Assembly: GCA_016699305.1 (NCBI GenBank)
Contig: CP064970.1
Span: 1,034,066 to 1,098,065, forward strand
Length of the DNA stretch: 64,000 bases
Reading direction: 5' to 3'
DNA from: Alphaproteobacteria bacterium
GTDB taxonomy: Bacteria > Pseudomonadota > Alphaproteobacteria > GCA-016699305
The notes under the pieces were generated by a model. It did no database searches. It was given only the letters and a program-made list of their open reading frames with translations, and was not told where the DNA came from. This document shows positions 1 to 19,986 of the stretch, piece by piece (position 1 is the stretch's first letter; each line of letters starts with the position of its first letter). A program made the translations under genes and the position numbers.

Positions 1-1628
1 CGAGCCTTGGCCTTTTCCTTGCGAGGCGTGGGGATGTCCACTTGCTCTTCCTCGGCCAAGGGGAGGTTTTGGACGTTGAGGCTGTAGTCGTCGTGGCCCC
101 ATTCGCATTTGGTAAGAACGGCACGGGGGATTTTACGGAGGGTTAGGTTTTCAAACGCATCCGCTTTGCCTCGGAAGGCGGAACAGCAAATAAGAAGACT
201 GCGCTTGTCGCCCACTTCTTCGGACAAGGCGGCGAGCTGCGCCTGATCCAGCGTTTGCGTTGTCACATAGATGAAGTCGGTCTCGGTTGAATGGCCTTGC
301 TGCCAATAGATTGTCTCGGACGGCGCATAGGTAAAGCCCATCAGCTTGCACATCGCCTGTGTCAGCATGGCGGGATCATAGTCTTTGTTGATGACCGCTT
401 GGCCGTATTTGTCCATCGAGATAAGCGATGGAGCCAACGCGTAATAGCGGAATCCACCGCCGCCCTTCCAACCCACAGCTTCGGTTATGCCGCCCTTGTC
501 TTCGCCATCGATCACCTTTTTGAGGCGCGGAATGATATGCGTATGGCAATGCTCGCCGAGTTCGATCATGATCCACCGCCGCCCCATTTTGTGAGCAACC
601 GCGCCCGTCGTGCCAGAACCAGCGAAGGAATCGAGGACGAGATCACCCGGATTGGTGGCCAAGAGAAGAATCTTTTGCAGAAGCCTCTCTGGTTTTGGTG
701 TCCCAAATAGGTCGGTAACTTTTACGTCAGGAAATAGGTTCTTTAGCTCGTATTTTGCCTGTCTGTTGTGACCTGTTTCTTCAAGGTCAGTCCATAAGGT
801 TGAAGGAGGGAGCCCCTCCATATCTGCGAGATAAGTGCGACGAATAAGGCGTGTATAGTCAGGCGAATAGCGAATCTCACCGGTTTTCATTTTCTCTTCA
901 ATCGTTTCACGCGACCAACGCCATCCATTGGGCGGATGCTTGATCTTATTTCCTTTCGGGGTAACAATATCGAACTGCAAATTGGTTCTTAGTCCGGGAT
1001 TGTTTACTGGGTTTCCATCAAACCATGCTCCCCTTGGATCATTGTCTGGATTCTTAAAATGTTTTCTCTTATTCATATCGTTTAGAAATTTGGGCGACCA
1101 ATCCGGCTCTTTTGCATAGATGAGAACATCATTGTGATCGAGAGAGAATTTCGTGACATTATTGTTGCTGTTGTCAGAGGTGCGCCAAACAACGTCTGAA
1201 ATAAAACAAGAACGCCCAAACACCTCGTCGCAAAGCACCTTGAGATAGTGGCATTCGTTGTCGTCGATGGTGATCCAGATTGAGCCGTCTTCGGAGAGAA
1301 GGTTGCGCAGGATTTCAAGACGATCGCGCATGAGGCCGAGCCAGATGGAATGTTCCAACCCGTCATCGTAATGAGTGAAAGCCGAGCCGGTGTTATAGGG
1401 CGGATCGATAAAGACGCATTTGACCTTCCCCGCATATTCCTGCTCCAACGCCTTAAGCGCGAGCAGATTGTCGCCAAAGATCAGCTTATTGTCGAACAAA
1501 TCATGATCCGTAACGCGCTTCTCCGCGTGATACGACTTTGTATCATCCTCCAACAAAATCCGAGGCTCCAACCGAGGCCTCTGATCCTTCCCAATCCACG
1601 TCAGTTCCAGCTTTTGCTTTTTTGTCAT
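1..1628 (-). CDS. Beta-class N6-adenine/N4-cytosine DNA methyltransferase (type III Mod-like, N6_N4_Mtase type), 3' end beyond window
   Basis: A manual reverse-complement translation from the ATG at 1628 is open all the way to position 1. Motif IV (VKCVFIDPPYNTG) lies near the N-terminus. The AdoMet-binding motif I (LVLDSFAGSGTTGAVA) lies about 250 aa downstream, which is the beta-class motif order. The track ORF at 1082..1477 is in a different frame and is spurious. The true ORF is absent from the track only because its stop lies outside the window. Confidence 0.85.
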   Translation of the reverse strand, partial: MTKKQKLELTWIGKDQRPRLEPRILLEDDTKSYHAEKRVTDHDLFDNKLIFGDNLLALKALEQEYAGKVKCVFIDPPYNTGSAFTHYDDGLEHSIWLGLMRDRLEILRNLLSEDGSIWITIDDNECHYLKVLCDEVFGRSCFISDVVWRTSDNSNNNVTKFSLDHNDVLIYAKEPDWSPKFLNDMNKRKHFKNPDNDPRGAWFDGNPVNNPGLRTNLQFDIVTPKGNKIKHPPNGWRWSRETIEEKMKTGEIRYSPDYTRLIRRTYLADMEGLPPSTLWTDLEETGHNRQAKYELKNLFPDVKVTDLFGTPKPERLLQKILLLATNPGDLVLDSFAGSGTTGAVAHKMGRRWIMIELGEHCHTHIIPRLKKVIDGEDKGGITEAVGWKGGGGFRYYALAPSLISMDKYGQAVINKDYDPAMLTQAMCKLMGFTYAPSETIYWQQGHSTETDFIYVTTQTLDQAQLAALSEEVGDKRSLLICCSAFRGKADAFENLTLRKIPRAVLTKCEWGHDDYSLNVQNLPLAEEEQVDIPTPRKEKAKA

Positions 1629-1653
1629 TGTTCACTTTTTCCAGATTATAGGG

Positions 1654-2652
1654 TTAGGTTGACAGCCAAATAACAATCAATCCTGCAATAACAGCCACAA
1701 CAATTTCTCCGATCCATGAGCATAGTAACGACCATGTGCGGATAATCCAAATGGGTTTAGCAATTTTCGTTGCTACGGAGGTATTAGCGGTAGGTTGGCA
1801 AGGAGGTTCTACCGAGACGCATTGATCGATTGCGGGAAGATCAAGGGATAGGGTTCTCAACCAAGCTACAAACTCTTTTGGTTTTACGCGGCTGGCGTAA
1901 AAGGACTTGATGCGTTCTTCCTCAGCAGCTTTCTGATCGCAATCGAACAGGTGATCGTTAAAGTCGTGCAGTTTCAAGTCTTGTGTACGCTGTGCATCTA
2001 GGATATAGCCCATCAGTCGCTTAACGCGGGGCTTATATCGCAAGAAAGCAATCTTCTTTTCTTCTTTCGTATTGCTTTGATGCCCGAGGACATAAAGCAA
2101 AGCATCCGTCATTTTCCAAAGGGGCTCGGTTATCCGCTGTACAAATGTTTTTTGATCTATCGCAGGAAAATTCAGATTCTCTTCTTTTCGAGAGTGTTGA
2201 GACAGACCGTAGTATTGGATTTGATTTTCTAGTTCGTCATATATCTGCTTAGGAATTTGTATGCCGGTTCGTTCAGCCCAGATAAGAAAGCTTACCGTAT
2301 AAAATTCTGGGGTCTTCTCCTTGTCTTGCTCAAAGGATTCAAAGTCGTAGTCCTTCACATATGCCTCGATTTCGCCTTTCTCTGCGGCCTTTAACGCACC
2401 GGCGAAACAATCCGCAGACTGCTTGTCTTGTCGAATAATCTCTTCTAACTTCTGGAGACCCACTGCCGTCTCACAGTACCTATAAAACAAATCGTTAAGT
2501 TGTTTTGACCTGTGCGCATCGTCGTCAAATTCAAGATGGAGGTACAAAACCAGCGCGGGCAAAGGCAGATGGTCGGGAACGGGAATTTTTCCCGCGCCCT
2601 CTGAAAGAAACCTTTCGATCATTAATTCTCTCATCCCTTCACTTCCCATGTG
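1654..2652 (-). CDS. Hypothetical protein with a C-terminal transmembrane helix (tail-anchored), AT-rich
   Basis: The track ORF is 1654..2712. The likely start is the ATG at 2652 (MSGHMGSEG...). The C-terminus, WIGEIVVAVIAGLIVIWLST, is hydrophobic. The gene is distinctly lower in GC than its neighbours. I recognise no conserved catalytic motif. Confidence 0.55.
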   Translation of the reverse strand, partial: HMGSEGMRELMIERFLSEGAGKIPVPDHLPLPALVLYLHLEFDDDAHRSKQLNDLFYRYCETAVGLQKLEEIIRQDKQSADCFAGALKAAEKGEIEAYVKDYDFESFEQDKEKTPEFYTVSFLIWAERTGIQIPKQIYDELENQIQYYGLSQHSRKEENLNFPAIDQKTFVQRITEPLWKMTDALLYVLGHQSNTKEEKKIAFLRYKPRVKRLMGYILDAQRTQDLKLHDFNDHLFDCDQKAAEEERIKSFYASRVKPKEFVAWLRTLSLDLPAIDQCVSVEPPCQPTANTSVATKIAKPIWIIRTWSLLCSWIGEIVVAVIAGLIVIWLST

Positions 2653-2749
2653 TCCGCTCATTATTCTCCAGCAAAATCCGAAGTTCCAACCGAAGTTCCC
2701 GATCCTTCCCAATCCACGTCAATTCCAGTTTTTGCTTTTTATTAGTCAT
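2639..2749 (-). pseudogene. Diverged duplicate of the methyltransferase 5' end (encodes MTNKKQKLELTWIGKDRELRLELRILLENNERTHGK)
   Basis: The DNA is about 80% identical over roughly 90 bp to the start of the methylase gene at 1540-1628. The peptide is near-identical to the methylase N-terminus, MTKKQKLELTWIGKDQRPRLEPRILLEDD. It overlaps the start of the 352-aa gene in another frame. Confidence 0.6.
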
Positions 2750-3482
2750 TTTTTTGATGATCCAAGTTTTCTGATGGGTAGAGAAGAATGCGAAAATCCC
2801 TGTCGATATTTTTGAAAGCATCTCTCATAGCGGCATATCTTATTTCGTATTCCTGATTATAGGATTTGGCTGGTAGATCTGTTTTTCCCCCTTCACCCAA
2901 CCAAGCATAAACTAAACTCATTGTCTCGATTAAACCCTCTATCGACGACCTTAGCTTATCTCCAATAAATATTTTGTTTGATGTGTAATTTTCATAAAAA
3001 GAGAGCAAGGGTGTTTTGGCATCTTGATGCGCCTTTTCAAGCTTCAGTTTTTGATAGGCATGAAATCTATAACTATATTCCACATTTCTGACTCTGGCCT
3101 TCTCCTCTTCTGAGAATGCTGCCTGTGCCAAAAACTCATTCAATCGTTCTAATGAAACATCCGTGCAATTCTCAATAGGTTTCAGTTGGAGGGTGCGATA
3201 ATAGATTTCTTCGAGCTTGCGCTGCGCCATTGAGAGATCGTTCCAAAGCTTCGGAAGCATGCCGAATTCAATGTCATGAAGTTTTGATAACCGATTAAAG
3301 GTAGAATCTATACGAAGATTGAATTTGCTTTGTTGTTCCTGAAATTTTGCATCAAGCCCCATTTTCCCTAGAACCAAACAAACAAAAATGACAAACACAA
3401 GAATTAGAACAACATAAATGCCATATCTCTGAATTTCTTGATTTATAAAGATTTGAATTATTGGATTAAGCGTCTCCGTCAT
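2742..3482 (-). CDS. Hypothetical protein with an N-terminal transmembrane helix, AT-rich
   Basis: The protein starts MTETLNPIIQIF. A GGAGG ribosome-binding site lies 5 nt upstream. The ATG overlaps the helicase TGA as ATGA. The transmembrane segment is YGIYVVLILVFVIFVCLVLG, followed by a helical soluble part. Confidence 0.6.
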   Translation of the reverse strand: MTETLNPIIQIFINQEIQRYGIYVVLILVFVIFVCLVLGKMGLDAKFQEQQSKFNLRIDSTFNRLSKLHDIEFGMLPKLWNDLSMAQRKLEEIYYRTLQLKPIENCTDVSLERLNEFLAQAAFSEEEKARVRNVEYSYRFHAYQKLKLEKAHQDAKTPLLSFYENYTSNKIFIGDKLRSSIEGLIETMSLVYAWLGEGGKTDLPAKSYNQEYEIRYAAMRDAFKNIDRDFRILLYPSENLDHQKND

Positions 3483-6451
3483 AATAGCCTCCATTCCACA
3501 CAAAACAGCGGCGTCACTTCGTGCCTGCTGTCCTGCAGTTGCCGTTCTAATTGATTAATAAGCTCTTCGCGCCTTGCGTCAATTTTATCTTGGCTCGTGA
3601 AAAGTTCATGTCGTTTTTGGGAGCGGCGTTTTTCGAAGGCGGCTTTTTGTTTTTGGAACGCCAATTTTTCCGCCAAACTAATCAATTGCTTAGATTGACG
3701 GTCGGCCTCGCGGATGTCTCGGTCGAGCTGCTTCAGTTCAATCTCAAGACCGGTCTTCAAGTCCTCGGCCCAACGGTCGAGCTTGTCGAGTTCCTCTTCA
3801 AAATAGCGGTGATTGCTCACTTCCGATTCGTTTAGGAGGGCTGCGACACGCACTGAACGATCAGCTTCCGCCGCATTCTGGTGTGGACAGGTGGAAAATT
3901 CTCCCTCGACCGAGGCCGAAAGCAGGAAGAGCTTCTCGCCAAATTCCTGCGGCAGGATTGCGCCGGTTTCGTCGCAAGTGATGAAGATCAGGGTTTCGGT
4001 TTCTTCGAAGGTTTTGATCGTCAGCTTGTCGAGCCAGAGCCATCCCTGTTTGCCGCGCTGCTCTTCCAGCAACGCAATCTTGTGCGGATAGGAGGAAAGG
4101 TCAAAAAGCAATGTTGCCGAAGGCGTCTCAAGCTCACGCCCCTTTTGAATAACGCGCTCCCCCATAAGATCGGACATGCGATAGGGATACCCCGTCACCG
4201 GAACCTTGGAGGAACCGCGCTTCGGCGTTGCAAGAGGATCGACCGGCTCGGCGGCCTTGGTTTCCAGATAATGATAAATGGGCGTGCGGTCACCATCGCT
4301 TGGCCTTTTCCCACGCGCGATGAAGGCGGCATCGTCGCCGAAGATCAGCTTTTCATCGTTGAAGAAGAACATCCCGTCATAGATGAATTTCGTCAGCTCC
4401 CAGAAATGATGCGTGACGGTGTCGATGCGCTTTTTTGTCGCCTCCATGCTGAACTTCAGATGTTTGGTCACGTCCTCGTCGAAATGCTCGAACAGCATGG
4501 TGCGCGTTTCGGCGATACGGCTTTGGATTGGCTCTTCCATTTCGGATTGAAGTTGCGTGAAGGCTCGTTCAATCTCTTCCGGCCTGCGGCAGGTTTCAAA
4601 AATCTCCAGCACGCGCTTTTCAAAGTCTATGCCGGACTCAACGCGGCCAAGAACCTCATCCGAAGCACCGAAAACGCCGTCGAAAAGCTGAAACTTCTCT
4701 TTTAGCAATTCATAGATGCGCTGATCGGCCAGATTGTCTTTGTTCAGAAAGTTGATGACGACCACATCGTGCTTCTGGCCGTAACGATGGCAACGGCCAA
4801 TGCGTTGCTCGATGCGCTGCGGATTCCAAGGCAGGTCGTAATTGACGATGAGTGAGCAGAACTGGAGATTGATGCCCTCGGCGGCGGCTTCGGTGGCAAT
4901 CATCACCTCGGCATGGTCACGGAAGAAATCGACCAAAGCCATGCGCATATCGACGTTTTTCGATCCCGTAATGCGGCCTGTCTCGGCGTTTTTGTCGAGC
5001 CAAAACGCATAAATGTCTTTGGCAAGATCGTCCGTGTTCTGGCCGTTGAAGGTCACGATTTTGCCGCGATACCCGTTGTCTTCCAGATACTCTTTCAAAT
5101 AACGCTGCGTGCGGCTGGATTCCGTGAAGACAAGAGCTTTGCGCGCACCACCAAGTTCCCCCATGCGAGCGAAGCCGGTTTGCAGCGATGTTAAGAGAGC
5201 CTTGGCTTTGGTTTCTATCTTGATCGAACGTGCTAGGGCTTCGAAACTGTTGATCTGCTCAATCTCGTAATTCAGTTTTTCGATGTCGATGTCTTTATGC
5301 TTGGGTGGGGCGGCTCGTTCTTCTTCCTCGCCATCCTCGGCATATTCGATGTCAATGTCCTGATCGGCTATAAACGCGCCACGCAGGTTCAGTTTTTCTT
5401 CCTTGCGGGTCTCGCGCATTTTCTCAAGGCGTGCTTTGATCGTTTTCAGCGTACCGACAAGCGCGAAGGACGATGAAGCGAGAAGTTTGCGGATGATGAG
5501 GACGACCAGTTTTCTTTGAGCCCACGGAATGGCGTAGGTATCTTGCTGGAGGAGAAAATCGGAAACTTCGTCGTAGAGCCTTTGTTCCTCGACAGATAGT
5601 CTGAACGGCTGTGTTATCGCTTCGCGGCGTGTGTAACGGATATATTCCAAAACCTGCCGCCGTAATGTGCGTTGAACAAACGGTGCGAGACGGGATTTCA
5701 GGTCGTCAATGTTGGGATTGCCGTTGACATACGCCGTTTTGAACGTGTCGATCCCGCCAAAAATCCGGTCGTCGATCAGCGAGGCAAGGCCGTAAAGCTC
5801 CATGAGCGAGTTTTGAAGGGGCGTTGCTGTTAAAAGCACCTTTTTATGATCCGCCAAGGCCGCCTGAATATTGCGGCCCATTTTATTGTCTTTCTTGAAC
5901 AGGTTTCGAAGCTTGTGGGCTTCGTCGATCACCACCAGATGCCACGGCATAGCCTTCATCTGCTCGGCATAGCGATTGGCGAATTGATAGGAAACGATGA
6001 CAACACCCGCAAAATCGAAGGGATCGCCATTTTGGCAACGCTCCGCATAATTGCTGCTTTCCAGTACAAGCGTGGGGAGGTTGAACTTTTCTTCCAGCTC
6101 AATCGACCATTGGCGGCGCAGGACGGCGGGACAAATGACGATGAGTCGCCGCTTATGTTCGGCCCATAGCTGGCAAAGCAAGATGCCGGCCTCAATGGTT
6201 TTGCCGAGGCCGACTTCGTCCGCCAGCATGACCCCCTTGGATAGGGGGGATCGAAGCGCAAAAAGCGCGGCCTCAATCTGGTGCGGATTAAGGTCTACGG
6301 CGGCGTCAAAAAGCGAAGTTGTAAGGCGATCAACAACCGCCGAGGCTTTCTTGGTCGAAATCTCGTGCGCAAAATACTTGGCGTGATAAGGGGTTAGGAC
6401 TGCTTTCGAGCACCTATTTTCTGCCCCAGATTGTTCTTCGTGTGCTCTCAT
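3479..6451 (-). CDS. SNF2-family (SF2) helicase/ATPase, 990 aa
   Basis: Motif I is LADEVGLGKT. Motif II is VVIDEAHKLRN. The SNF2 signature is LLTATPLQNSLMELYGL. Motif VI is QRIGRCHRYGQ. The C-terminal region has a long coiled-coil-like extension. Confidence 0.9.
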   Translation of the reverse strand: MRAHEEQSGAENRCSKAVLTPYHAKYFAHEISTKKASAVVDRLTTSLFDAAVDLNPHQIEAALFALRSPLSKGVMLADEVGLGKTIEAGILLCQLWAEHKRRLIVICPAVLRRQWSIELEEKFNLPTLVLESSNYAERCQNGDPFDFAGVVIVSYQFANRYAEQMKAMPWHLVVIDEAHKLRNLFKKDNKMGRNIQAALADHKKVLLTATPLQNSLMELYGLASLIDDRIFGGIDTFKTAYVNGNPNIDDLKSRLAPFVQRTLRRQVLEYIRYTRREAITQPFRLSVEEQRLYDEVSDFLLQQDTYAIPWAQRKLVVLIIRKLLASSSFALVGTLKTIKARLEKMRETRKEEKLNLRGAFIADQDIDIEYAEDGEEEERAAPPKHKDIDIEKLNYEIEQINSFEALARSIKIETKAKALLTSLQTGFARMGELGGARKALVFTESSRTQRYLKEYLEDNGYRGKIVTFNGQNTDDLAKDIYAFWLDKNAETGRITGSKNVDMRMALVDFFRDHAEVMIATEAAAEGINLQFCSLIVNYDLPWNPQRIEQRIGRCHRYGQKHDVVVINFLNKDNLADQRIYELLKEKFQLFDGVFGASDEVLGRVESGIDFEKRVLEIFETCRRPEEIERAFTQLQSEMEEPIQSRIAETRTMLFEHFDEDVTKHLKFSMEATKKRIDTVTHHFWELTKFIYDGMFFFNDEKLIFGDDAAFIARGKRPSDGDRTPIYHYLETKAAEPVDPLATPKRGSSKVPVTGYPYRMSDLMGERVIQKGRELETPSATLLFDLSSYPHKIALLEEQRGKQGWLWLDKLTIKTFEETETLIFITCDETGAILPQEFGEKLFLLSASVEGEFSTCPHQNAAEADRSVRVAALLNESEVSNHRYFEEELDKLDRWAEDLKTGLEIELKQLDRDIREADRQSKQLISLAEKLAFQKQKAAFEKRRSQKRHELFTSQDKIDARREELINQLERQLQDSRHEVTPLFCVEWRLL

Positions 6452-6570
6452 TCATCCAGTCTCTGATTCGTAAAGCCATCTACCCCTCCAGTTGAGAAAC
6501 CTTAAGCCATAACGACAATAAAGGATAGCCGAATGTTTCTAAAAGCCTTGTCTTTTAGTGAGTTAGATCT

Positions 6571-7002
6571 TCAATCCACCTGTTGTGCCGTCAGGAACAT
6601 TGCCTTTTCAAGGGCGGCGAAAAACTGCTGATAGGGCTGCGGATCCTCGATGGCAGTGATGTTGTACTGGGCGTTGGCGCGGACGATAGTCTGGGGCGTG
6701 CCGCGATCACGGACGCTGACGGTCATGCGCATGGCGTAACCGTTTAATTTTGTTCCACTTACTGTGCCGAGAGTGGCGTCGGCCTTGTCGATCACAAAGC
6801 CCAGATCTTGAAGCGTGGCGATGATGGTGCGCAGGGTCTTGGCCTTGTCGGTCGTGTCGAAGGCCCGGCTTTGCATGCTGCGCAGCGCCACTTGGCTTTC
6901 GGAGGTCTGAAGAACCTGATTACGGCTGTCTGTCTGGCATGCGGTCAGAAGCAAAAGGACCATAAAGGGAACTGCTACGGTCTTGATCGGATGGCGGGAC
7001 AT
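6571..7002 (-). CDS. Lipoprotein (signal peptide, lipobox LLTAC)
   Basis: The N-terminus is MSRHPIKTVAVPFMVLLLLTAC. It is a paralogue of the next gene: both share an LQDLGF motif and a C-terminal YQ(Q/E)FF..L....FLTA motif. Confidence 0.6.
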   Translation of the reverse strand: MSRHPIKTVAVPFMVLLLLTACQTDSRNQVLQTSESQVALRSMQSRAFDTTDKAKTLRTIIATLQDLGFVIDKADATLGTVSGTKLNGYAMRMTVSVRDRGTPQTIVRANAQYNITAIEDPQPYQQFFAALEKAMFLTAQQVD

Positions 7003-8145: not shown

Positions 8146-9135
8146 ATGCGATTTGAAAAAGCCGAAGACTTGCTGAACCTTGCCTTTGCCATGCAATCGA
8201 GCGCCGATGGCGTTTCGCTGGCCGACATTGAGCAGATGTTCGAGGTTTCGCGCCGGACAGCCATGCGCATGTGGGACGCCGTGGTGCGGGTTTATCCGCA
8301 GACGGAGGAGAAGACCGATGCCTGCCGTATCAAGCGCTGGCGCATTCCTTCTGCGACAAATGGGCGACATTTGGCCCTGACGCCCGACGAACTGGCGACC
8401 CTCGACATGGCCGCCAAGGCCTTTAACGGGCGCGGGCTGCGCCTTCAGGCCAAAGCACTGCGCTCCCTGTGCGGCAAGATCAAAAGTTTTCAGAAGTGCG
8501 AAGCATCACGCCGGATTGAGCCAGACCTTGAGGCTTTGATTGAGGCCGAAGGCCTAGCTGCACGTCCAGGCCCGCGGCCCAAGATCAAGGTCGAGCATCT
8601 TCATGCCCTACGCGAAGCGATCAAGGCCTGCCAGATCGTCGAGATTCTCTATCGTGGCAAGGGAAAGAAAGAGGCTGAGGTCAAACGGGTTGCACCTTAT
8701 GGGTTCCTCTACGGCCACCGGCATTATCTCGTCGGCGGCGGCACGGAGAAGGGGCGCGAAACCTCTCGCTACCACTTCATCCTTTCGCAGATCGAAGATG
8801 TCACCATCACAAAGCAGGGCTTCCGCCGCGATCCTGCCTTCAACATTCAAAGCTATGCCGAGGAATCCTTTGGCATCTGGAAGGAAAAGCCTGTCGAAGT
8901 CGTTTGGAAATTCACGCCGCGCGCCGCTGAGGCCGCCCGTGATTTCGTGTTCCATCCAAGCCAAAAAATCAGCGAAGGCAAAGACGGCTCCATGACCGTT
9001 CGCTTCAAGGCAGGCGGCATGCTGGAAATGGCTTGGCATCTCTATATGTGGGGCGATCAGGTCGAAGTCGTCAAACCCGCCGCGCTGCGCAAAATGGTAA
9101 ACAGTCACGCGCGGAAGTGGGAAGGCTTGCCCTAG
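8146..9135 (+). CDS. HTH-WYL-WCX transcriptional regulator (BrxR/CapW/YafY-like)
   Basis: The start ATG is at 8146, with a GGAAG ribosome-binding site. The N-terminus is a wHTH (SLADIEQMFEVSRRTAMRMWDAV). The central region resembles a WYL domain (RYHFILSQIEDVTI). The C-terminal extension is about 100 aa. The 5' part of the track ORF is antisense junk. Confidence 0.7.
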   Translation: MRFEKAEDLLNLAFAMQSSADGVSLADIEQMFEVSRRTAMRMWDAVVRVYPQTEEKTDACRIKRWRIPSATNGRHLALTPDELATLDMAAKAFNGRGLRLQAKALRSLCGKIKSFQKCEASRRIEPDLEALIEAEGLAARPGPRPKIKVEHLHALREAIKACQIVEILYRGKGKKEAEVKRVAPYGFLYGHRHYLVGGGTEKGRETSRYHFILSQIEDVTITKQGFRRDPAFNIQSYAEESFGIWKEKPVEVVWKFTPRAAEAARDFVFHPSQKISEGKDGSMTVRFKAGGMLEMAWHLYMWGDQVEVVKPAALRKMVNSHARKWEGLP

Positions 9136-9156
9136 GTGATCGTAAACGAGGTTTAA

Positions 9157-10062
9157 ATGTGTAACGCCTATAATCATCCATCATACTGTACCTGTGGTTG
9201 GGGTGGATGGACTTCTTTTGCCCGCCCATCAGATAAGGCCGGCAACGCCGCTGTAAATTTTTGGCGGTCTGCGTGGTCTTCGGGCCGGTTGGCAAGATAC
9301 GAAACTTACACATGCCCCAATTACACTTGCTGGATATGCGGTGCCAAGGTGTTCTTCTATCACTCTCCTTTCGGCGGGCGCGTTTTCTTTGACGAACTTG
9401 GGCCGCCTTGGCCTCGCCATGCTTGTTTCGCAAAAACCGATTCCGCTTTTATCAAAGCCCCAGAGCCATCTGGCTATATTCTTCCAAGCGCAGCCCCTGC
9501 CTTTTGTCCCGCCGCCTGGAGTCGAGACGGATGGGATCCAATCGAAATTATCTCGTCCGCTCTTAGTGACAAGAAAGAGGATCAAGATTTTTATATGCTA
9601 GAAGTGCGCCGCGTCGCTGCGGCAGAGGGAACCTTGTGTCTAGGCGCGCACCTCAAGAAAAACATTGCGCGCGATACGCCTGTTTTTCTTAGAGAAACAG
9701 ATATGATTGGCGTTTATGAAATCGATTATCTTGACGCCGAAAACCTAAACGGTTCCGGCGAGCGTCTCAAAGCCTATCAAAACGCGAATAGCGCGGCGGC
9801 TTATGAATATTGGCAGTTGGCAACCCTGGATAATGATCCCAAAGCGCAGAACTATGTCGCTATGCTTTTGCTTTTTTACACGCCTTTCAGATTTCTTAAA
9901 GGCGTTTCCGTTGATGACGCTCCGTCTATCATGGAGGCCAGATATTGGCTTGAAAAGGCAGCTAGCGGAAACGCCATTGAGGCTGTTTGTAATTTGAAAA
10001 GGCTCAATGAAAGACAAATGGAAGGGAAACCGTTCTTCCGCTCGGAATATCAGTTGGATTGA
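9157..10062 (+). CDS. Hypothetical protein: N-terminal Cys-rich (putative Zn-ribbon) region plus C-terminal Sel1/TPR-like repeats
   Basis: Cysteine clusters are C-x9-C-x-C and CPNYTCWICGAK...RHAC. The C-terminal repeats have the AAYEYWQLA...YWLEKAASGNAIEA pattern. The gene starts 22 bp after the WYL regulator stop, so it is probably co-transcribed. Confidence 0.5.
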   Translation: MCNAYNHPSYCTCGWGGWTSFARPSDKAGNAAVNFWRSAWSSGRLARYETYTCPNYTCWICGAKVFFYHSPFGGRVFFDELGPPWPRHACFAKTDSAFIKAPEPSGYILPSAAPAFCPAAWSRDGWDPIEIISSALSDKKEDQDFYMLEVRRVAAAEGTLCLGAHLKKNIARDTPVFLRETDMIGVYEIDYLDAENLNGSGERLKAYQNANSAAAYEYWQLATLDNDPKAQNYVAMLLLFYTPFRFLKGVSVDDAPSIMEARYWLEKAASGNAIEAVCNLKRLNERQMEGKPFFRSEYQLD

Positions 10063-10341
10063 GCCTGCTATGGGAGGGGCGAACAACCGCTCTTGGGCCC
10101 ACGTCATTAAGGGGTAAGGTTGATAAAAGGTTTCTCTATCGTTTTCATCCAACCGCGCCCGATCTTTTGGTCGCAATATACGGTAAACAACATCTTTATT
10201 AAGGTTCAATTCTTGCCCCTGAATTAACGCAAAGGTAAGGAAGTATGCGGCAATATCCCCTTGGGTAAGTGCGTCCTTTTGGTGAAACGGGCGGCGCTTG
10301 CCGCGTGGGGAAAACGTTTCGTTTCAAGCGATTGGGCGGGG

Positions 10342-13300
10342 ATGACCGAGGGCACCAAAACACAGCTGAACAAACCATGGTTGCTTGCGACTACGGCGCT
10401 GTGCAGCCTCGTGGTGTTTGCGGCGCAGGCGGCAACCCCCGCACCCAGAACGCTGCCGCAAGGCGGATCAGTCGTCGCCGGAAACGCAGGCATCAGCACG
10501 TCCGGCGCAAACATGACCGTGAACCAGAGCAGCAGCTCGGCGGTTATCAACTGGAACAAGTTCGACGTTGGGTCACAGGCGAAGGTGCAGTTTAATCAGC
10601 CTGACGCGTCCTCGCGCACGCTGAACCGTGTTTTGTCGAGCGACCCGTCACAGATTTACGGGCAAGTGACGGCGAACGGTCAGCTTTATTTTGTGAACCC
10701 CAACGGCGTGATCGTCGGGCAGGGGGCAAGGATCGAGGCGGGCTCCATCACCGCGACCACGATGGACATCGGCAACGATGCCTTCATGGCGGGAGCGAAT
10801 AGCTTCAGCCGAGGCTCGGCCACAGGCGAGATCGTCAACCAAGGAACGCTTGCCGCCGCGCCTAAAGGTTATGTCGCGCTGATCGGCGCAAAGGTTACAA
10901 ACAAAGGCACCATCACCGCCCCGCAAGGCCAAGTGGCTATGGCGGCAGGGGACAAGGTCACCTTGCCCGTCACAGGCAGCGGCCTGATCGGCATCGAAGT
11001 TGATGCGGCCTCTGTTCAAACGGCTATCACGAATGAAGGCACGATCACCGCGCCTGATGGCAGTGTCTATATCAAAGCCGAAACCGCCAGCAGCCTTGGT
11101 GCGCAGATTGTCAACAAGGGCACGATCACGGCCAAGAATGTGGCCATGCAATCGGCCAGTGGCAGCGTGACAACCTCGGCGGCCAGCGTAATCGCTGCTG
11201 ATAATGTAACCGCGCGCGCTAAAGTCTTGGATATTGATGGCTCTGTTCGGACCTTTGGCGATACGGCGCAAATTGGGCTTTATGCTGGGTATCTGAGCCT
11301 GCGCGGAAGTCTAGAGGCTCAAAACGCAAACGGAACCGGCGGCGCGATTGAAGCCGTCGGCACGCAAGAAACCAACCTGTTTGGTGCAAAGCTGACCGCC
11401 AGCGGCATGAATGGCGGCGGGACGATCAAGATCGGCGGAGATGCGCAGGGCAGCGGCACGTTGCAACGTTCGGCGCAGACGACGGTTGATAAAGCGACAA
11501 CACTCAAAGCCAGCGCATTGGCGACAGGCGATGGCGGGACGGTGATTGTCTGGTCGGACGGTAAGACCAGCTTCGCCGGTTCGATCGAAGCCACGTCCGC
11601 AACTGGTAAAGGCGGCAACGCCGAAGTGTCCGGTAAGGTGAAGCTCAGCTATCAAGGCTATGCCGACCTGCGGGGCGCGAGCGGGACGGCGGGCACATTG
11701 CTGCTCGATCCAACAGACTTTACGGTCGCGGCCTCAGGCGGTGACATGACCGGCGCGGCGTTGTCGGCGCAGCTCGAAGGCGCGAACGTGACGTTGCTTT
11801 CCAGTAATGGCAGCAGCGGTACAGCAGGAAATATCAATATCAACGACACGGTATCGTGGAGCTCTGCGTTCGGCCTTACGCTTAGCGCGGCTGCGGACAT
11901 CAATATCAATGCCGCGATTACGACAAGCACAGGCTTGTTGACGCTGACAACGGGCAGCGCAAGCTATAGTACTTATGTAAATGCAAACGTCACAGCGAAC
12001 AGAATCGTATCGACCTATGACACGATTCTGGTTAAGGCTGAAACAGCAACAGTCGAATTAACGGGCAGTAGTCCAGCTTTGACGATCGCGGGAACCAGCT
12101 ATACGTTGATCAACAATCTCTCTAGCTGCAACTCAATGACATTGTCAGGAGCTTATGCTCTCAACGCCAATATCGGAACAGCAACGGTTCCGATTGGATC
12201 CAGCGCAACGCCTTTTACCGGAAAGATCAATGGCCTTGGCCACACGGTTACAGTCAACATAACGGCCAGCGGCGATAATACAGGTTTGTTTGGATATGCT
12301 TCGCTTGCCTCGATCAAGAATATAGGTGTGAGCGGCAGCGTGTCGGCGACAACGACAAGTTACACGGGTGCTCTTGTCGGGTATAGTGTGAATAGTACGA
12401 TTTTGAACAGCTGGTCGACGGCAACCGTTCACGGGCAGAATTACGTTGGCGGGCTTGTCGGCCAGAACACGGCCAATACCAGTAAAACCGCGTCAATCAT
12501 CATGAGCTATGCCAAGGGCGCGGTGACGTCAGAAACGGGCAGCTATTATGTTGGCGGGTTGGTCGGCGAAAATCTGGGAACAGCCAGCGGCAGCAGTGCT
12601 GTTGTAACATCAAGCTACGCCATCGGAGCCGTCACGGGCACAAACTATGTAGGCGGCTTGATCGGTTATAATTACAGCAATACCAGTGGTACGGCACCAA
12701 TTACATCCAGCTATGCGACAGGGAATGTTACTGCTGACTATTATGCCGGTGGTCTTATCGGCTATAACTATGGGCAGTCCAGCGGTAACGCTTCGATCAA
12801 TTCCAGCTATGCGACAGGGGCGGTCGGCAGTGCCGCAGCGCAATATGCCGGCGGTCTTATCGGGTGGAATAATACAAACAACGGTACGGCTTCGATCGAG
12901 CTTAGCTATGCGACGGGCGCGGTGCAGGGGGCGTATTATCTTGGCGGTCTTGTCGGGTATAATTATGGGAATAGCAGCGGTACGGCTTCGATCGCGAATA
13001 GCTATGCAACGGGTTCCGTCACAGGCGATGCTGGCGGACAGGCAACAGGCGGTCTTGTCGGCTGGAATAAAATCAACAGCGGTACTGCGCCGATAACGGC
13101 CAGTTATGCCGTCGGCGCGGTTAGTGGCGGGACCTATGTAGGCGGATTGACGGGCTTGAATAGTGGCACGGTGACCAGCAGCTATTGGGACACGCAAACA
13201 ACAGGACAGGCGACAAGCACAAGCGGTACAGGCATGACAACGGCCCAGCTTAAGTCAGCTTTGCCGTCGGGATTTAGTGCGGCCGTTTGGCGTATATCCG

Positions 13301-15798
13301 CCGGAACATCCTATCCTGACTTGTTGTGGAAAGGGATTCCGCAACAAGTGATTTCCGGTACGATCGGCAGCGTGCTTGCAGGGCAAACGATCCAGCTTGT
13401 CCTGAATGGTGCGGTTCTGGGGTCGGCACTAACAAACGCAAGCGGCGCGTTTACAATTAGCGTCAGTTCGGGCGCGGTTGGAGCCGGATCGTCCGTATTG
13501 CTCTATGCCGATAACAGCAGCTTTACTGGAACATATGTGGGTGTCGGGACAGGCGGCGATATGACGGGGCTGGCGCTTGGTTCAGGCGGGGTGAAGGTGA
13601 CGGGCGCTGCGGCGACGGCGCTGGACGTGACGGCTTTGATGAAAAGCGCGGTTGGCGGTTTGACGGATAGTGATATTCTTTATACGACGGCAAGCTCCAG
13701 TGTCACGGTTGGTGGCAACTTGGCGGTGACGGCATTTGGCGTGGTCAGCCAGACAGATGCCTTGATTGTATCGGGAACGACCAGCGTTTCCGCGACGGGC
13801 TCTGCTCTGGCTTTCACGAACGCGGCGAACAGTCTGACCGGAACGGTAAGCGTTGCGGCAGCACAGTCTATTTCGATCACGAACAATCGCGCGACCTCTT
13901 TGGGCGCAATAACGGCCAGCGGCGATATCCTTGTTCGCGCGAACGGATCGATTGCGATCGAGAGTGGATCGGTTCTGACGTCGAGTGCTGGCGGAATTGA
14001 TCTTGTGGCTTCCGGCGATCATTTCATAAATAACGGAACAGGTGCGGCGTTGTCCGCAGCGACAAGCTGGCATATCTATACGGCAAGCCCGACGGGCAAT
14101 ACGCTTGATGGTTTGAGTTATAATTACAGTCAATATGGCGCTTCTTATGGCGACACGTTGCTTGGAACCGGAAACGGTCTGATTTATGCGTCCAGTTTGG
14201 CCACAACGCAGGTTAGTGTAACGGGGGCAATAAGCAAGGTTTATGACGCGGCGGACACTGCGACAGTCGGGCTTGCAGACGTTGCTCTGACGACGACGGG
14301 GTTGAGCGGGGCGACTTATACTTACTCGGTTGGCGCGGCCTCGTATGACAGCAAAAATGTAGGAACGGGCAAAACGGTTACAGCGGCGGTTACGCTGACG
14401 GGAATTACAGAGGCGACCGGACAGGCCGTGTACGGATTTACATCCAGCCTGTCAGGTAGTGGCGCGGTTGGTGAGATCACAGCCAAAACCCTGACTGTGA
14501 CTGGCACAACGGTTTCTGGCAAGGTATATAACGGCGACACGGTGGCGACGGTGAATGTCGGCAGTGCGGCGCTGGCTGGGGTTGTCGGCGTGGATGCGGT
14601 GAGCCTCGGGACGGGCAGTGCGGTTGGGGCGTTTGCGGATAAGAATGTTGGAACGGGCAAGAGCGTCACAGCTAGCGGGTTCACCATCACGGGCACGGAT
14701 GCGGGGAACTATACGCTGGCCCAGCCGACGGGGCTGAGCGCGGACGTCACAGCGAAGACAATCACCGTAACGGGCGTGATGGCTGCTACAAAAACCTATG
14801 ACACGACCGCGGCGGCGAGCCTGAATGTGGGAAGCGCGACCTTATCCGGCGTCTATGGGAGCGATGTTGTGGGGCTGGATGCGTCTGGTGCGAGTGGGGT
14901 GTTTGCGGATAAAAATGTAGGCACAGGAAAAGGCGTTACAGTTACGGCTTTGGCTTTGAATGGGGCGGATGCCGGCAATTATGTGTTGACGCAGCCCACC
15001 GGCGTTCAAGGCACGATTAACAAAGCAAACCTAACGGTCACGGGCGTAACGGCAGGCGACAAAGTCTATGACGGATCCTTGGCAACCAGCGTGGATGCGA
15101 CGGGGGCCGTCTTGTCAGGTGTTTTGGGCACGGACGCGGTTTCCTTGATTACGATCGGCGCAAGCGCGGCGTTTGCCGATAAGAATGCGGGAACGAACAA
15201 GAGCGTCAATGTCTATGGCCTGGCGTTAACGGGCGTAGATGCCGCGAATTACGATGTCGCGACCATCGGCGTTGTTGCAGATATTTCGCGTAAGGACCTA
15301 ACCTATCAAGTGGCGAATGCCACGACGAATAAGGGTCAGATTCAGCTGGGGGCCGTCACCTTTTCCGGGTTGGTTGGGGGAGACTCGGTTGGTGCTGTTA
15401 GTGAACTGGTCGATGCAGGTGGAAATGTTGTTTCGGTCAGCGCGTCTATACCGGCTGGGACCTATACGCAACGCGTGGCTTCGCTGACGGGGGGGCATGC
15501 TGCAAATTACCATTTGCAACAGACCGGAAGCACGTTTGGAACGCTTGTTGTTGGTCATGCCGTACATTCGGTCTCAGACGAAAAGCTCAACATGATGAAT
15601 CTTTTGGGCATGTGGTATGATAAAGAACGTAAAACACAAGAGAAACCGTATGACCTGCAAGGCTTGCAGGTGCAGGAGTTCTTGTTGGAAAAAGGGCGGC
15701 AGATAGAGCTGATCCGTATCCCAAACGGGCCTAAAGGAAAGAAAATTAGAATCCAAAAGCTCGCGCAAAACACTTCCAGCCGAGCGTCTGCTCAATAA
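10342..15798 (+). CDS. Filamentous haemagglutinin-like two-partner-secretion exoprotein (TpsA) with GLUG-like and YDG/MBG-like repeats
   Basis: The TPS domain motifs are present: NQSSSSAVINWNKFDVG, and NPNGV in QLYFVNPNGVIVGQG. A long pectate-lyase-like Gly/Thr-rich shaft follows. There are about 12 (Y)YVGGL(I/V)GxN repeats and five ~90-aa repeats of the TAKT(L/I)TVTG...KVYDG...GNY type. The track start is a TTG at 10261. The ATG at 10342 precedes an extended signal peptide. Confidence 0.85.
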   Translation: MTEGTKTQLNKPWLLATTALCSLVVFAAQAATPAPRTLPQGGSVVAGNAGISTSGANMTVNQSSSSAVINWNKFDVGSQAKVQFNQPDASSRTLNRVLSSDPSQIYGQVTANGQLYFVNPNGVIVGQGARIEAGSITATTMDIGNDAFMAGANSFSRGSATGEIVNQGTLAAAPKGYVALIGAKVTNKGTITAPQGQVAMAAGDKVTLPVTGSGLIGIEVDAASVQTAITNEGTITAPDGSVYIKAETASSLGAQIVNKGTITAKNVAMQSASGSVTTSAASVIAADNVTARAKVLDIDGSVRTFGDTAQIGLYAGYLSLRGSLEAQNANGTGGAIEAVGTQETNLFGAKLTASGMNGGGTIKIGGDAQGSGTLQRSAQTTVDKATTLKASALATGDGGTVIVWSDGKTSFAGSIEATSATGKGGNAEVSGKVKLSYQGYADLRGASGTAGTLLLDPTDFTVAASGGDMTGAALSAQLEGANVTLLSSNGSSGTAGNININDTVSWSSAFGLTLSAAADININAAITTSTGLLTLTTGSASYSTYVNANVTANRIVSTYDTILVKAETATVELTGSSPALTIAGTSYTLINNLSSCNSMTLSGAYALNANIGTATVPIGSSATPFTGKINGLGHTVTVNITASGDNTGLFGYASLASIKNIGVSGSVSATTTSYTGALVGYSVNSTILNSWSTATVHGQNYVGGLVGQNTANTSKTASIIMSYAKGAVTSETGSYYVGGLVGENLGTASGSSAVVTSSYAIGAVTGTNYVGGLIGYNYSNTSGTAPITSSYATGNVTADYYAGGLIGYNYGQSSGNASINSSYATGAVGSAAAQYAGGLIGWNNTNNGTASIELSYATGAVQGAYYLGGLVGYNYGNSSGTASIANSYATGSVTGDAGGQATGGLVGWNKINSGTAPITASYAVGAVSGGTYVGGLTGLNSGTVTSSYWDTQTTGQATSTSGTGMTTAQLKSALPSGFSAAVWRISAGTSYPDLLWKGIPQQVISGTIGSVLAGQTIQLVLNGAVLGSALTNASGAFTISVSSGAVGAGSSVLLYADNSSFTGTYVGVGTGGDMTGLALGSGGVKVTGAAATALDVTALMKSAVGGLTDSDILYTTASSSVTVGGNLAVTAFGVVSQTDALIVSGTTSVSATGSALAFTNAANSLTGTVSVAAAQSISITNNRATSLGAITASGDILVRANGSIAIESGSVLTSSAGGIDLVASGDHFINNGTGAALSAATSWHIYTASPTGNTLDGLSYNYSQYGASYGDTLLGTGNGLIYASSLATTQVSVTGAISKVYDAADTATVGLADVALTTTGLSGATYTYSVGAASYDSKNVGTGKTVTAAVTLTGITEATGQAVYGFTSSLSGSGAVGEITAKTLTVTGTTVSGKVYNGDTVATVNVGSAALAGVVGVDAVSLGTGSAVGAFADKNVGTGKSVTASGFTITGTDAGNYTLAQPTGLSADVTAKTITVTGVMAATKTYDTTAAASLNVGSATLSGVYGSDVVGLDASGASGVFADKNVGTGKGVTVTALALNGADAGNYVLTQPTGVQGTINKANLTVTGVTAGDKVYDGSLATSVDATGAVLSGVLGTDAVSLITIGASAAFADKNAGTNKSVNVYGLALTGVDAANYDVATIGVVADISRKDLTYQVANATTNKGQIQLGAVTFSGLVGGDSVGAVSELVDAGGNVVSVSASIPAGTYTQRVASLTGGHAANYHLQQTGSTFGTLVVGHAVHSVSDEKLNMMNLLGMWYDKERKTQEKPYDLQGLQVQEFLLEKGRQIELIRIPNGPKGKKIRIQKLAQNTSSRASAQ

Positions 15799-15821
15799 TA
15801 AAAGTACCGATTTTTATACTT

Positions 15822-16885
15822 CGCAGATTCAACTAGCCAGCGCATAAAAGTGGGAGCGTAAAGCTGATAACCTCTTGGCAAGCAAGAGGTTAAGCATGGC
15901 AAACTATCGAAGGCTGACGGCGGAAGACCGATGTCAGATATACGCCCTGAACAAGCAGGGCAGCACGCAGCAACAGATTGCCGACCATCTGGGCGTCAGC
16001 CAGAGCGCGGTCAGCCGAGAACTCGAGCGGAACAGCGGAGGCCGAGGCTATCGGTTCAAGCAAGCGCAAGAAAAAGCTTCGGCGCGGCAGGCGGTGCGGT
16101 CCAGGCCGCGCAAGCTGACGAAGGGCTTGCGGCGGCGGATCGAGACCAAGCTGCGTACGGCCCGTTGGTCGCCGGAACAGGTCAGCGGCTGGCTCGCCGA
16201 ACAAGGCGTATCGCTCAGCCATGAACGCATCTATCAGATGATCTGGCAGGACAAGCGCGAGGGCGGCGAGCTCTGGAAGACCCTGAGGCGGCGCGGCAAG
16301 CGGTATAACAAACGCGCGGGAAAGACGGCAGGAAGAGGTCTGATTCCCAATAGAATCGACATATCAGAGCGTCCCACCGTGGTGGAGCACAAGAGCCGCG
16401 TGGGCGATTGGGAAGGCGATACGGTCGTGAGCGCGGGCCACAAAGGCGGCCTTCTGACACTTGTCGAGCGCAAAACGAAGCTGACAAAAATCGCCAAACT
16501 GCCACGCGCCACAGCAGTGGCCACACGCAAGGCAACCGTGCGCAAGCTCGCCGCCATCAGCGAGCGCGTCCACACGATCACTTTCGACAACGGCAAAGAG
16601 TTTGCCGATCACCAGAACATGGCTTCTGCCTTGGGCGCGGACATCTTCTTTGCCAAGCCCTATCACGCTTGGGAACGCGGTCTGAATGAGAACACCAACG
16701 GCCTGATCCGCGACTTCTTCCCAAAGGGTACGGACTTCTCTACAATCACCTCCGCCGAGGTTGCCAAGGTCGAACGTCTCCTTAACGATCGCCCGCGCAA
16801 GTCTCTCGGTTTCAAGTCACCAAAAGAGGTTTTTCTAGCCGCCGCGGCCCCGTAGAATTTTATGCGCTGGCTAGTTGAATCTGCG
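15822..16885 (+). mobile_element. IS30-family insertion sequence, intact
   Basis: Perfect 28-bp terminal inverted repeats, cgcagattcaactagccagcgcataaaa, lie at 15822-15849 and, as the reverse complement, at 16858-16885. They flank a single transposase ORF. Confidence 0.85.
15896..16855 (+). CDS. IS30-family transposase (HTH + DDE)
   Basis: The start ATG is at 15896, with an AAGAGG ribosome-binding site. The N-terminal HTH is QQQIADHLGVSQSAVSRELERN. The catalytic core resembles the DDE family (WEGDTV...FDNGKEF...NENTNGLIR). Confidence 0.85.
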   Translation: MANYRRLTAEDRCQIYALNKQGSTQQQIADHLGVSQSAVSRELERNSGGRGYRFKQAQEKASARQAVRSRPRKLTKGLRRRIETKLRTARWSPEQVSGWLAEQGVSLSHERIYQMIWQDKREGGELWKTLRRRGKRYNKRAGKTAGRGLIPNRIDISERPTVVEHKSRVGDWEGDTVVSAGHKGGLLTLVERKTKLTKIAKLPRATAVATRKATVRKLAAISERVHTITFDNGKEFADHQNMASALGADIFFAKPYHAWERGLNENTNGLIRDFFPKGTDFSTITSAEVAKVERLLNDRPRKSLGFKSPKEVFLAAAAP

Positions 16886-19017: not shown

Positions 19018-19986
19018 CTGTTGCGAAAGTCGGTTAATTTTGGGCACAAAGGAATGGCCGATCCCGATGGACAGGGGATCAGAACCCTGAGATGAGATTG
19101 ACGATACCCGCTATGGCGGAGAACTTGGCGGCGTAGGTCGCTTTGGAATAGCGGAAGCGCTCGGCGAAGAGCCGGAAGGACTTGATTTTGGCGAAGACGT
19201 GCTCGACGCGCACGCGAAAACGGCTCAACGCGTGATTGTAGGCGCGTTCGTCTTTCGTCAGTTTGTGCTTTTTCGTTTTCTTGTAGGGGATATCGACGTC
19301 GGGATGATCGCTTTGGATGCCTTGATAGCCGCTGTCGGCGTAAAGGTGAGAACCTTTTGGCAAGGGCGGGCCTCGCCGTCGGAGGGCAAGATCGTGCACG
19401 CGTCCGGGCGCAGGTTTTGACACGCTGACGATTTTCCCTTGCGCCGTGATGACAGCTTCGGTCTTGATCGTGTGACGCTTCTTTTTGCCCGAGTACCAGC
19501 CGCGCTGCTTGCGGCGCGGACGCTGGATCGGTTGCTCCGTGGCATCGACGATCAAAGCCTCGGCTTCCTCGCGGGCCACGCGGATGGACCGCTTCACGCC
19601 AAAAACTGCGGCCACAATCGGCTCGATCCGATGCAAGGCGCGGCTGATCGCCGCTTTGTCCACGCCGTACAAAAGGCCCAGAAAATCCTGCGTGATCGCG
19701 CAACGGTACAGGATCAAAAGCACCAGCAGATGGTCTTCCAACCCGCCGATGCCCCATGGGCGGCCCGTACGGTTCTTCGGCTCAACGACGCGCCGCTGCC
19801 AGCGGGTGCGAAGACGCTCGACCATCTCCAGAAAAAGCGAGGCCTCAACGCCCGTCAGCCGCTGAAATTGCCTCTTGCGCAAAAGCGCAGCACATCTAAA
19901 CTTCGTCATCGGAGAGGCCTCCAACGCCTCTCCAACCTTGAATCATAAGGCTGTTAACAAAGATTCAACGCTGACTTTCGCAACAG
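19018..19986 (-). mobile_element. IS5-family (IS427/IS1031-like) insertion sequence
   Basis: Imperfect terminal inverted repeats share a ctgttgcgaaagtc core, at 19018-19031 and, as the reverse complement, at 19973-19986. They flank a single DDE transposase ORF. Confidence 0.65.
19079..19924 (-). CDS. IS5-family DDE transposase
   Basis: The catalytic region resembles DDE_Tnp_1 (YADSGYQG...RVRVEHVFAKIK). The overlapping minus-strand ORF at 18978..19757 is spurious. Confidence 0.75.
   Translation of the reverse strand: MEASPMTKFRCAALLRKRQFQRLTGVEASLFLEMVERLRTRWQRRVVEPKNRTGRPWGIGGLEDHLLVLLILYRCAITQDFLGLLYGVDKAAISRALHRIEPIVAAVFGVKRSIRVAREEAEALIVDATEQPIQRPRRKQRGWYSGKKKRHTIKTEAVITAQGKIVSVSKPAPGRVHDLALRRRGPPLPKGSHLYADSGYQGIQSDHPDVDIPYKKTKKHKLTKDERAYNHALSRFRVRVEHVFAKIKSFRLFAERFRYSKATYAAKFSAIAGIVNLISGF

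Follow-up and report, generated by a model that had tools for sequence, protein, structure and literature searches.

Genes for abortive-infection (Abi) and HEPN proteins embedded in restriction-modification (R-M) operons are well documented, with PrrC in EcoprrI, Ymh and AbiJ among the cases (PMC3710099; review PMC12707154). In the Type Ic EcoprrI locus the PrrC anticodon nuclease is abortive-infection-type cargo placed between R-M genes (Anantharaman et al. 2013, PMC3710099). The operon analyzed here lies at the beginning of a 64,000-nt stretch of an alphaproteobacterial genome (GenBank assembly GCA_016699305.1, contig CP064970.1, positions 1,034,066 to 1,098,065), referred to as the window, and shows a comparable arrangement. 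There are differences: the window system is of Type III with an SNF2 helicase upstream, and its inserted gene, p352, ends in a transmembrane (TM) tail and not in a HEPN domain. All operon genes are on the minus strand, in the order SNF2 helicase, p253, L2 (an orphan copy of the start of the methylase gene mod), p352 and Type III mod. We propose, with a probability of roughly 70%, that a related locus donated p352 together with a mod 5' end, through an illegitimate join near codon 30 of the resident mod and a homologous join further into mod.

The other close reference is DISARM class 1 (DrmD plus DrmMI), which the window resembles in having a DrmD-type helicase and a methylase following in the operon. 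The helicase (3479..6451, 990 aa, first gene of the operon) carries the Pfam domains SNF2-rel_dom and Helicase_C, matches the PADLOC model PDLC02619 for DrmD with E=3.7e-208, and is 84-88% identical in amino acids to the helicases of L004-L007 and L139 (comparison loci are cited by L number). The methylase gene (1..1628), of which 542 codons are visible before it runs off the window start, encodes a Type III Mod according to both Pfam (N6_N4_Mtase, PF01555, E=1.4e-46) and PADLOC (MTase_III, PDLC03636, E=2e-217, residues 1-524), the match to Type III Mod being full length. The window ends inside mod, which in L007 and L008, two relatives, is followed at once by REase_III, the Type III Res (E~1e-230); neither in the window nor in these two relatives was any DrmA, DrmB (DUF1998) or DrmC seen. 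Because a Type III Res, and not DrmA/DrmB/DrmC, comes after mod in the relatives, the system, judged from its genes, appears to be an SNF2-helicase-linked Type III R-M system and not a canonical DISARM.

The key observation is the duplicated mod start. A preliminary description of this DNA had reported a second, diverged copy of the methylase 5' end, and the copy is real: a repeat search matched minus-strand positions 2660-2740 to the mod start at 1542-1622 over 81 ungapped nt, with 85% identity and a spacing of 1118. In the whole 64 kb there are exactly two occurrences of a 24-nt core, YTGGAAYTGACGTGGATTGGNAAG, which gave no match in 100 dinucleotide-preserving shuffles, not even when 3 mismatches were permitted. 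Aligned with MAFFT, the two copies can be matched from their ATGs (2749 and 1628) as far as about 2657, L2 having one extra codon, AAT, and the longest identical run between L2 and L1 (the first ~30 codons of the intact mod, 1540-1628) is 21 nt. L2 as a whole runs from its ATG over 36 codons to a TGA at 2641-2639 (2639..2749, the mod-homologous part being ~2657-2749) and reads MTNKKQKLELTWIGKDRELRLELRILLENNERTHGK; the peptides quoted earlier for both copies are correct. The shared sequence, KLELTWIGK..RPRLEPRILLED, belongs to the Type III Mod family itself, as its conserved N-terminus; it is neither a ribosome-binding site nor a generic, portable leader peptide. A further direct repeat, of 23 nt with 83% identity, links the spacer just upstream of the mod ATG (1639-1661) with the 3' part of p253 (2850-2872); its spacing of 1211 is out of register with the 1118 of the leader repeat and it is probably coincidental.

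Concerning the state of L2, the first 15 codons are much better preserved than codons 16-30: compared with the allele of L139 and L005, it shows 2 differences in the first 47 nt and about 9 in the next 43 nt, and in codons 16-30 Pro is changed to Leu twice and Asp to Asn twice, at residues conserved in every functional allele. This distal loss of conserved Pro and Asp codons marks L2 as a pseudogene remnant, probably a stump of the resident mod that is decaying distally. The gene upstream, p253 (2742..3482 in the ORF list, 246 aa), has its true ATG at 3482, overlapping the helicase stop as ATGA, and its own stop lies 3 nt inside the L2 open reading frame (ORF). This overlap of the L2 ATG with the p253 stop is like the canonical junctions between the last cargo gene and mod in L005, L007, L008 and L139, which argues that L2 is what is left of the mod that originally stood after p253. 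The p253 protein has an N-terminal TM helix (hydrophobic segment, residues 23-54), gave no match in Pfam and PADLOC searches, and has homologues in L139/L140 (68-69% identity) and in L008 (23%). Taken alone, this scar is an ordinary pseudogene, and what makes it valuable is that the pattern recurs, as described below.

The two copies point to different sources. L2 is of the MTNKKQ allele, with the extra AAT, the same as in the intact mods of L139 and L005. These two loci also give the best matches to the window drmD (87-88% aa) and to the 3' end of mod, whose last 100 codons show 0.90-0.93 nt identity to them. For L1 and the part that follows, that is, the 5' 120 codons of mod, the nearest locus is L007, with 0.89-0.95 nt identity and, in alignment columns 41-120, 100% aa identity; the middle of the gene, holding the target recognition domain (TRD), is unique to the window. 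Hence, L1 and L2 are different allele classes and the present mod is a mosaic. Type III mod genes such as the modA and modH alleles exchange alleles and TRDs through recombination in the conserved segments that flank them. The window mod is similar in having conserved 5' and 3' segments around a unique centre; unlike in that exchange, the segment here also brought an upstream gene and left a stump.

The origin of p352 is indicated by L001, since the window from 2594 to 1584 is collinear with L001:10119-11127, through the p352 gene (74% identical in L001), the 25 nt that separate the p352 stop from the mod ATG (1629..1653 in the window, a spacer that aligns with the one after the L001 homologue) and the leader up to WIGKD; in L001 it is a leader stump that comes after. 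This collinearity supports the view that p352 arrived with its own mod start. The base composition was also counted in favour of an insertion, the guanine-plus-cytosine fraction of p253 (0.38-0.40) and p352 (0.44-0.46) being unlike that of the helicase (0.52-0.55). Allele classes, mosaic structure, collinearity and composition together point to a backbone of the L139/L005 kind, in which mod was interrupted near codon 30 by p352 plus an L007-like mod 5' part, and the earlier suggestion of a scar left by a cassette from a related locus thus fits well. A 254-aa gene upstream of the L001 homologue was considered as a p253 homologue, which would have made a two-gene cassette, and rejected (19% identity, Bro-N-like).

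As for p352 itself, the earlier statement that the leader frame stops and a 352-aa ORF takes over in another frame is right as to the stop and the change of frame, and the start of the gene needs correction. The mechanical 352-aa ORF begins at a TTG at 2712, inside L2 in another frame, so that its first ~26 codons are an out-of-frame read of the leader. The N-termini of all 17 homologues follow M..(N)YTGK(V/I)..P(D/E)HLPLP, i.e. M..NYTGKVSIPEHLPLP, which places the true start at the ATG at 2634 (MRELMIERF..., 326 aa, gene 1654..2634), 4 nt past the L2 stop. The leader KLELTWIGK is carried by none of the 17; hence L2 is a scar and not a functional start of p352. The family is rare, with 19 homologues among 5.8 billion proteins, and combines a conserved helical N-domain of ~270 aa with variable C-termini (Hypoth_Ymh/HEPN, another tail, or a TM helix). 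A C-terminal Ymh (HEPN) domain is present in 7 of the 19, and in its place the window p352 and its closest homologue have a TM helix, so that p352 is an all-helical domain with a C-terminal TM helix. Pfam and PADLOC searches with p352 returned no match, hence no HEPN (Ymh) assignment, and its AlphaFold2 model (pLDDT 78.6) found no fold match in the PDB at E<1. Family members of the Ymh type (L003, L018-L023) adjoin integrase or toxin-antitoxin genes with no helicase or mod nearby, and because these sit away from helicase and mod, the family is mobile cargo and not intrinsic to this operon. At L018, L019 and L021, and partly at L003, the genes after the Ymh-type member are one of ~216 aa, SpoVG and one of ~365 aa. 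For both p352 and p253 we infer a defence role.

The pattern of an orphan mod leader recurs at L139/L140, L001, L114, L081, L047 and L073. In L139/L140, the closest relative (helicase 88% aa), the order is helicase, Ymh-HEPN (256 aa), a p253 homologue (68%), an orphan leader, a family-C gene of 234 aa and mod. This orphan leader, MTKKQKLDLTWIGKDQRPQLAPWILL..., has its breakpoint at ~codon 26 and its ORF end overlaps the next gene as ATGA; the intact mod there is of the MTNKKQ allele and the orphan of the other allele type, without derived substitutions in common with L2. On these two grounds the L139/L140 scar is an independent event, at the same junction and with different cargo. L114 shows a mod 5' fragment with 63 good codons, 87% identical over 174 nt to its own mod, followed by the Septu genes PtuA (E=1e-164) and PtuB (E=3e-39) and the intact mod. 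L081 holds helicase, PtuA, PtuB, a 24-codon leader fused in frame to a SEC-C-motif protein, and an intact mod start, the same leader/SEC-C fusion being present in L074 and L134. Loci where the same leader precedes different genes, which the preliminary description had recommended looking for, therefore exist, with Septu, the family-C protein and the SEC-C protein as the genes in question.

Further stumps are found in L047, which has two, one of them ahead of HNH and PDC-M56A, and in L001, where an array (L001:7753-17409) consists of a helicase 3' fragment, the Bro-N-like gene, the p352 homologue, a leader stump to WIGKD, a 171-aa TM gene, a second stump to WIGK and HEPN_Swt1. The array lies on an integrative element with a split integrase, a helix-turn-helix gene, a relaxase/DUF3363 gene and AlpA, and this element may be a vehicle that moves units of cargo plus leader. 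In L007, at 1401-1677, the decayed 3' remnant of a helicase gene runs straight into a degenerate mod leader (WIGK to LIRK, ~26 codons), 8 kb upstream of the intact system, beside a housekeeping ADH gene and at the edge of a defence island (RNase_H_2 plus SF1 helicase, DUF4238, WYL); the stumps of L007 and L139 are decaying too. L073 carries a recent mod-start duplicate of 176 nt and 97% identity, which includes upstream non-coding DNA and a REP-like (repetitive extragenic palindromic) element. At L073:4998-5500 and in L129, REP-like elements (translated ...NVARMQRSVIR...) truncate a PIN-like gene, and they lie between the 97%-identical mod-start duplicate and the intact mod. Two other arrangements were seen. 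In L006:14389-15811 the mod homology begins only at about residue 256 of the window mod (ORF 14903-15811), right after a family-C gene, so that this mod seems to be without its N-terminal half and may record another rearrangement. L010 (Parvibaculaceae) has three paralogous full-length Type III mods around one helicase, at 8245-9837 (-), 14758-16380 (+) and 19149-20750 (+), with leaders near-identical in DNA.

When metagenome contigs were scanned for exact copies of the 24-nt core, 115 stretches (L024-L138; soil, freshwater, human gut) were retrieved, most of which hold intact Mods of 530-590 aa from very different communities; the human-gut variant reads MAQDKKLQKLELTWIGKDD. L056, L058, L096, L104 and L120 were excluded from the orphan count, as they are frameshifted full-length mods with short leader ORFs. 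The true orphan fragments in this metagenome sample end 0-446 nt past the leader core in ~20 cases and more than 1000 nt past it in 2, and the breakpoints by locus fall at codons of about 9, 10, 24, 26, 27, at least 30 (window), 33, 40 and 63.

The place where these events occur is the interval between helicase and mod. Among 13 relatives of the helicase it measures 0.2-3.2 kb and holds different, partly shuffled genes, with 1-3 unrelated cargo genes in 10 of the 13; in the window p253 is there. The preliminary description had taken mod as the normal neighbour of the helicase, and this is not borne out; a methylase directly after the helicase was found only in distant relatives with other methylase types. 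The slot content is unlike in every relative and defence-like: TM proteins of two families, an LmuB-like SMC ATPase with a family-C protein, SocA/Panacea, AbiJ/Abi_C, DUF3800 and a PDC-M48B metallo-beta-lactamase protein. As with embedded HEPN and Abi genes elsewhere, the relatives' slot holds AbiJ/Abi_C, Ymh, Septu and Panacea, and the p352 family has the Ymh HEPN as its usual domain. Hence, between helicase and mod these operons have a variable slot, which takes up Abi and other defence cargo. Most cargo boundaries are free of a leader scar, so that most exchange probably proceeds by clean recombination in the conserved flanks. In a limited literature search, covering its sources in part, no description of orphan-mod-start scars or of the SNF2-linked Type III slot was found; it is this slot, and the recurring scars that record cargo entry, that are added to the known picture of embedded Abi genes.

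The mechanism that we consider for the window starts from an ancestral operon of helicase, p253, mod and res, with genes that would abut or overlap and leave no intergenic DNA for insertion. With stops and starts overlapping in this way, cargo can enter harmlessly between p253 and mod only by breaking mod and bringing a new mod start. The incoming DNA would have come from a related locus as p352, spacer and the 5' part of a mod. Its right crossover would have been homologous and inside mod, and its left join illegitimate, some 30 codons into the resident mod. The predicted product would start with L2, as codons 1-30 of the resident mod, continue with p352 and end in a complete hybrid mod whose beginning is L1. 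The operon would thereby keep a working methylase and gain a cargo gene, L2 decaying afterwards in its distal half. Since the L2 ATG sits at the p253 stop and its frame is closed 4 nt before the p352 ATG, ribosomes may pass on down the operon. Like events are seen again and again in related helicase-Type III R-M operons. The clean homologous exchange within the conserved mod 5' region that had been suggested earlier would leave no duplicate, and the left join was rather illegitimate. The simplest model is homology-facilitated illegitimate recombination, which combines one homologous anchor with one microhomology join and is known from transformation studies in Acinetobacter and Streptococcus. 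Its predicted product, foreign DNA joined through mod homology on one side and by an illegitimate join near the anchor on the other, is what the window resembles. In both direction and mechanism the transfer is deduced from sequence alone: the mosaic mod supports the homologous flank, and at the left join the shared octamer TGCTGGAG is suggestive and only weakly supports a microhomology join.

Several points weigh against this reading. The left join cannot be fixed to a single base: ahead of the L001 p352 homologue the DNA is weakly similar to the window junction, but the similarity (window 2673-2612) is such that 3-5 of 500-1000 shuffles reach its score. Neither can the right crossover be placed exactly, the TRD in mid-mod being unique to the window. 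No empty-site relative, with helicase, p253 and a mod with an intact MTNKKQ leader, was found, the nearest being L008, whose p253-like protein is 23% identical. The 5' skew of the orphan breakpoints was seen in stretches that had been chosen for having the leader core intact, and may reflect survivorship and not a preferred target; moreover, all comparison loci are metagenome assemblies. It should be noted that the DNA upstream of the L001 homologue was also tried as a degenerate leader, and that it is not significantly similar to functional leaders (477-597 of 1000 shuffles reach the score).

These considerations bear on the recombination hotspot proposed in the preliminary description. The junction was indeed used repeatedly (L139/L140, L114, L081, L001, L047, L073), but there is no defined site, the breakpoints ranging from ~codon 9 to 63, and the hotspot may largely reflect operon geometry and survivorship and not a special sequence. 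Long duplicates are lost quickly by recombination between the repeats, so that only short, diverged stumps survive. The packed geometry and this repeat loss explain the clustering of scars at the mod start, and neither is exotic. In the window L1 and L2 share no more than 21 identical nt, and p352 should now be fairly stable.

Among the alternatives, the one that survives best is compatible with a scar origin and holds that L2 was kept for a function, either as an upstream ORF coupling the translation of p253 to that of p352 or as a 36-aa mimic of the Mod N-terminus; we regard it as possible, at well below even odds. Translational coupling through L2 would agree with its start on the p253 stop, with its closure 4 nt before p352, and with the better preservation of the first 15 codons. 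Orphan ORFs elsewhere also end close to the next start (-8 in L001_b, -4 in L139 and in L116, 0 in L001_a, +4 in the window, with an in-frame fusion in L081). This proximity is not clearly beyond chance according to a rough estimate, each event having a chance of about one third of falling into the frame of the gene upstream in the donor; the distal half of L2 has lost conserved residues, and the stumps of L007 and L139 are likewise in decay. A broader version would make the mod 5' end and the helicase 3' end a recombinase-independent docking sequence, by which defence cassettes are captured and stacked as an integron-like array, with stumps kept to relay translation and mobile elements like the L001 island ferrying the units; this is speculative and somewhat less probable still.

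Cassette exchange, by which one orphan leader arose once after p253 and cargo was then swapped by ordinary homologous recombination between leader copies, or between leader and mod, is in our view unlikely. Its attraction is that p253 plus an orphan leader precedes p352 in the window and the 234-aa family-C gene in L139, and that a single crossover of a circle of cargo plus leader, integrating in the Campbell manner as one possible route, yields leader, cargo, leader and mod exactly. The 21-nt identical run of L1 and L2 could serve as the substrate, but within 85% identity it is a poor one for homologous recombination. Moreover, the AAT codon and the breakpoint (at least codon 30 against ~26) are not the same in the stumps of the window and of L139, and these have no common derived substitutions, which points to independent events.

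Much less likely is a tandem duplication of the mod 5' end in situ, followed by divergence and insertion of p352 between the copies. That leaders can duplicate locally is seen in the recent repeat of L073 (176 nt, 97%), but the window copies are 85% identical, belong to different allele classes, each matching another relative, and stand in an operon whose mod is a mosaic; p352 and its downstream leader were, in addition, inherited as a unit common with L001.

The insertion also recalls integrative elements in tRNA 3' ends and integron cassettes, in that a duplicated gene end flanks the insert, the target stays intact and cargo is arrayed between repeats (as in L001); it is unlike them in having no fixed core site, no dedicated recombinase and a repeat length from ~30 to 190 nt. 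Site-specific recombination (integron-like, or at an att site in the mod 5' end), or else a programmed frameshift fusing the leader to p352, could point to direct repeats flanking a single gene, to the integrase adjoining L001 and to the one-base (+1) offset between L2 and p352, but is hardly credible: breakpoints lie at different codons by locus without a common core site at the junctions, the ORFs of window 1-12 kb showed no recombinase gene (the Pfam search took in the four operon proteins and five flanking ORFs, most small ORFs not being domain-searched), which together largely exclude an integron-like or att-site mechanism, the integrase of L001 is split and stands outside the array, an Rfam search of 1-7000 found no element, and a fusion is contradicted by the absence of the leader from all 17 p352 homologues and by the loss of conserved residues in L2.

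Concerning regulation and surroundings, promoter-like sites across the region occur at chance level only, and the minus strand of the slot showed no terminator-like site. A regulator with WYL/WCX domains and a BrxR-like architecture is encoded at 8146-9135 (+), ~1.7 kb upstream of the helicase start and separated from it by three small lipoprotein-like genes; in L007 a WYL/WCX gene (L007:8597-9670) lies directly upstream of the helicase, and the window gene may regulate the defence operon. Further away, 10261-15798 (+) encodes a two-partner-secretion exoprotein of 1845 aa (TPS, GLUG and YDG domains), unrelated to the leader duplication.

The window thus offers a sequence-level record of how a packed R-M operon can take up an extra gene and keep its essential methylase intact, and orphan mod starts are an easy marker for such insertions. 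The slot of SNF2-linked Type III systems holds Septu, AbiJ, Ymh-HEPN, Panacea, DUF3800 and genes of unknown kind, and is a practical hunting ground for new defence or guard genes, such as p253, p352, the family-C protein and the SEC-C protein.

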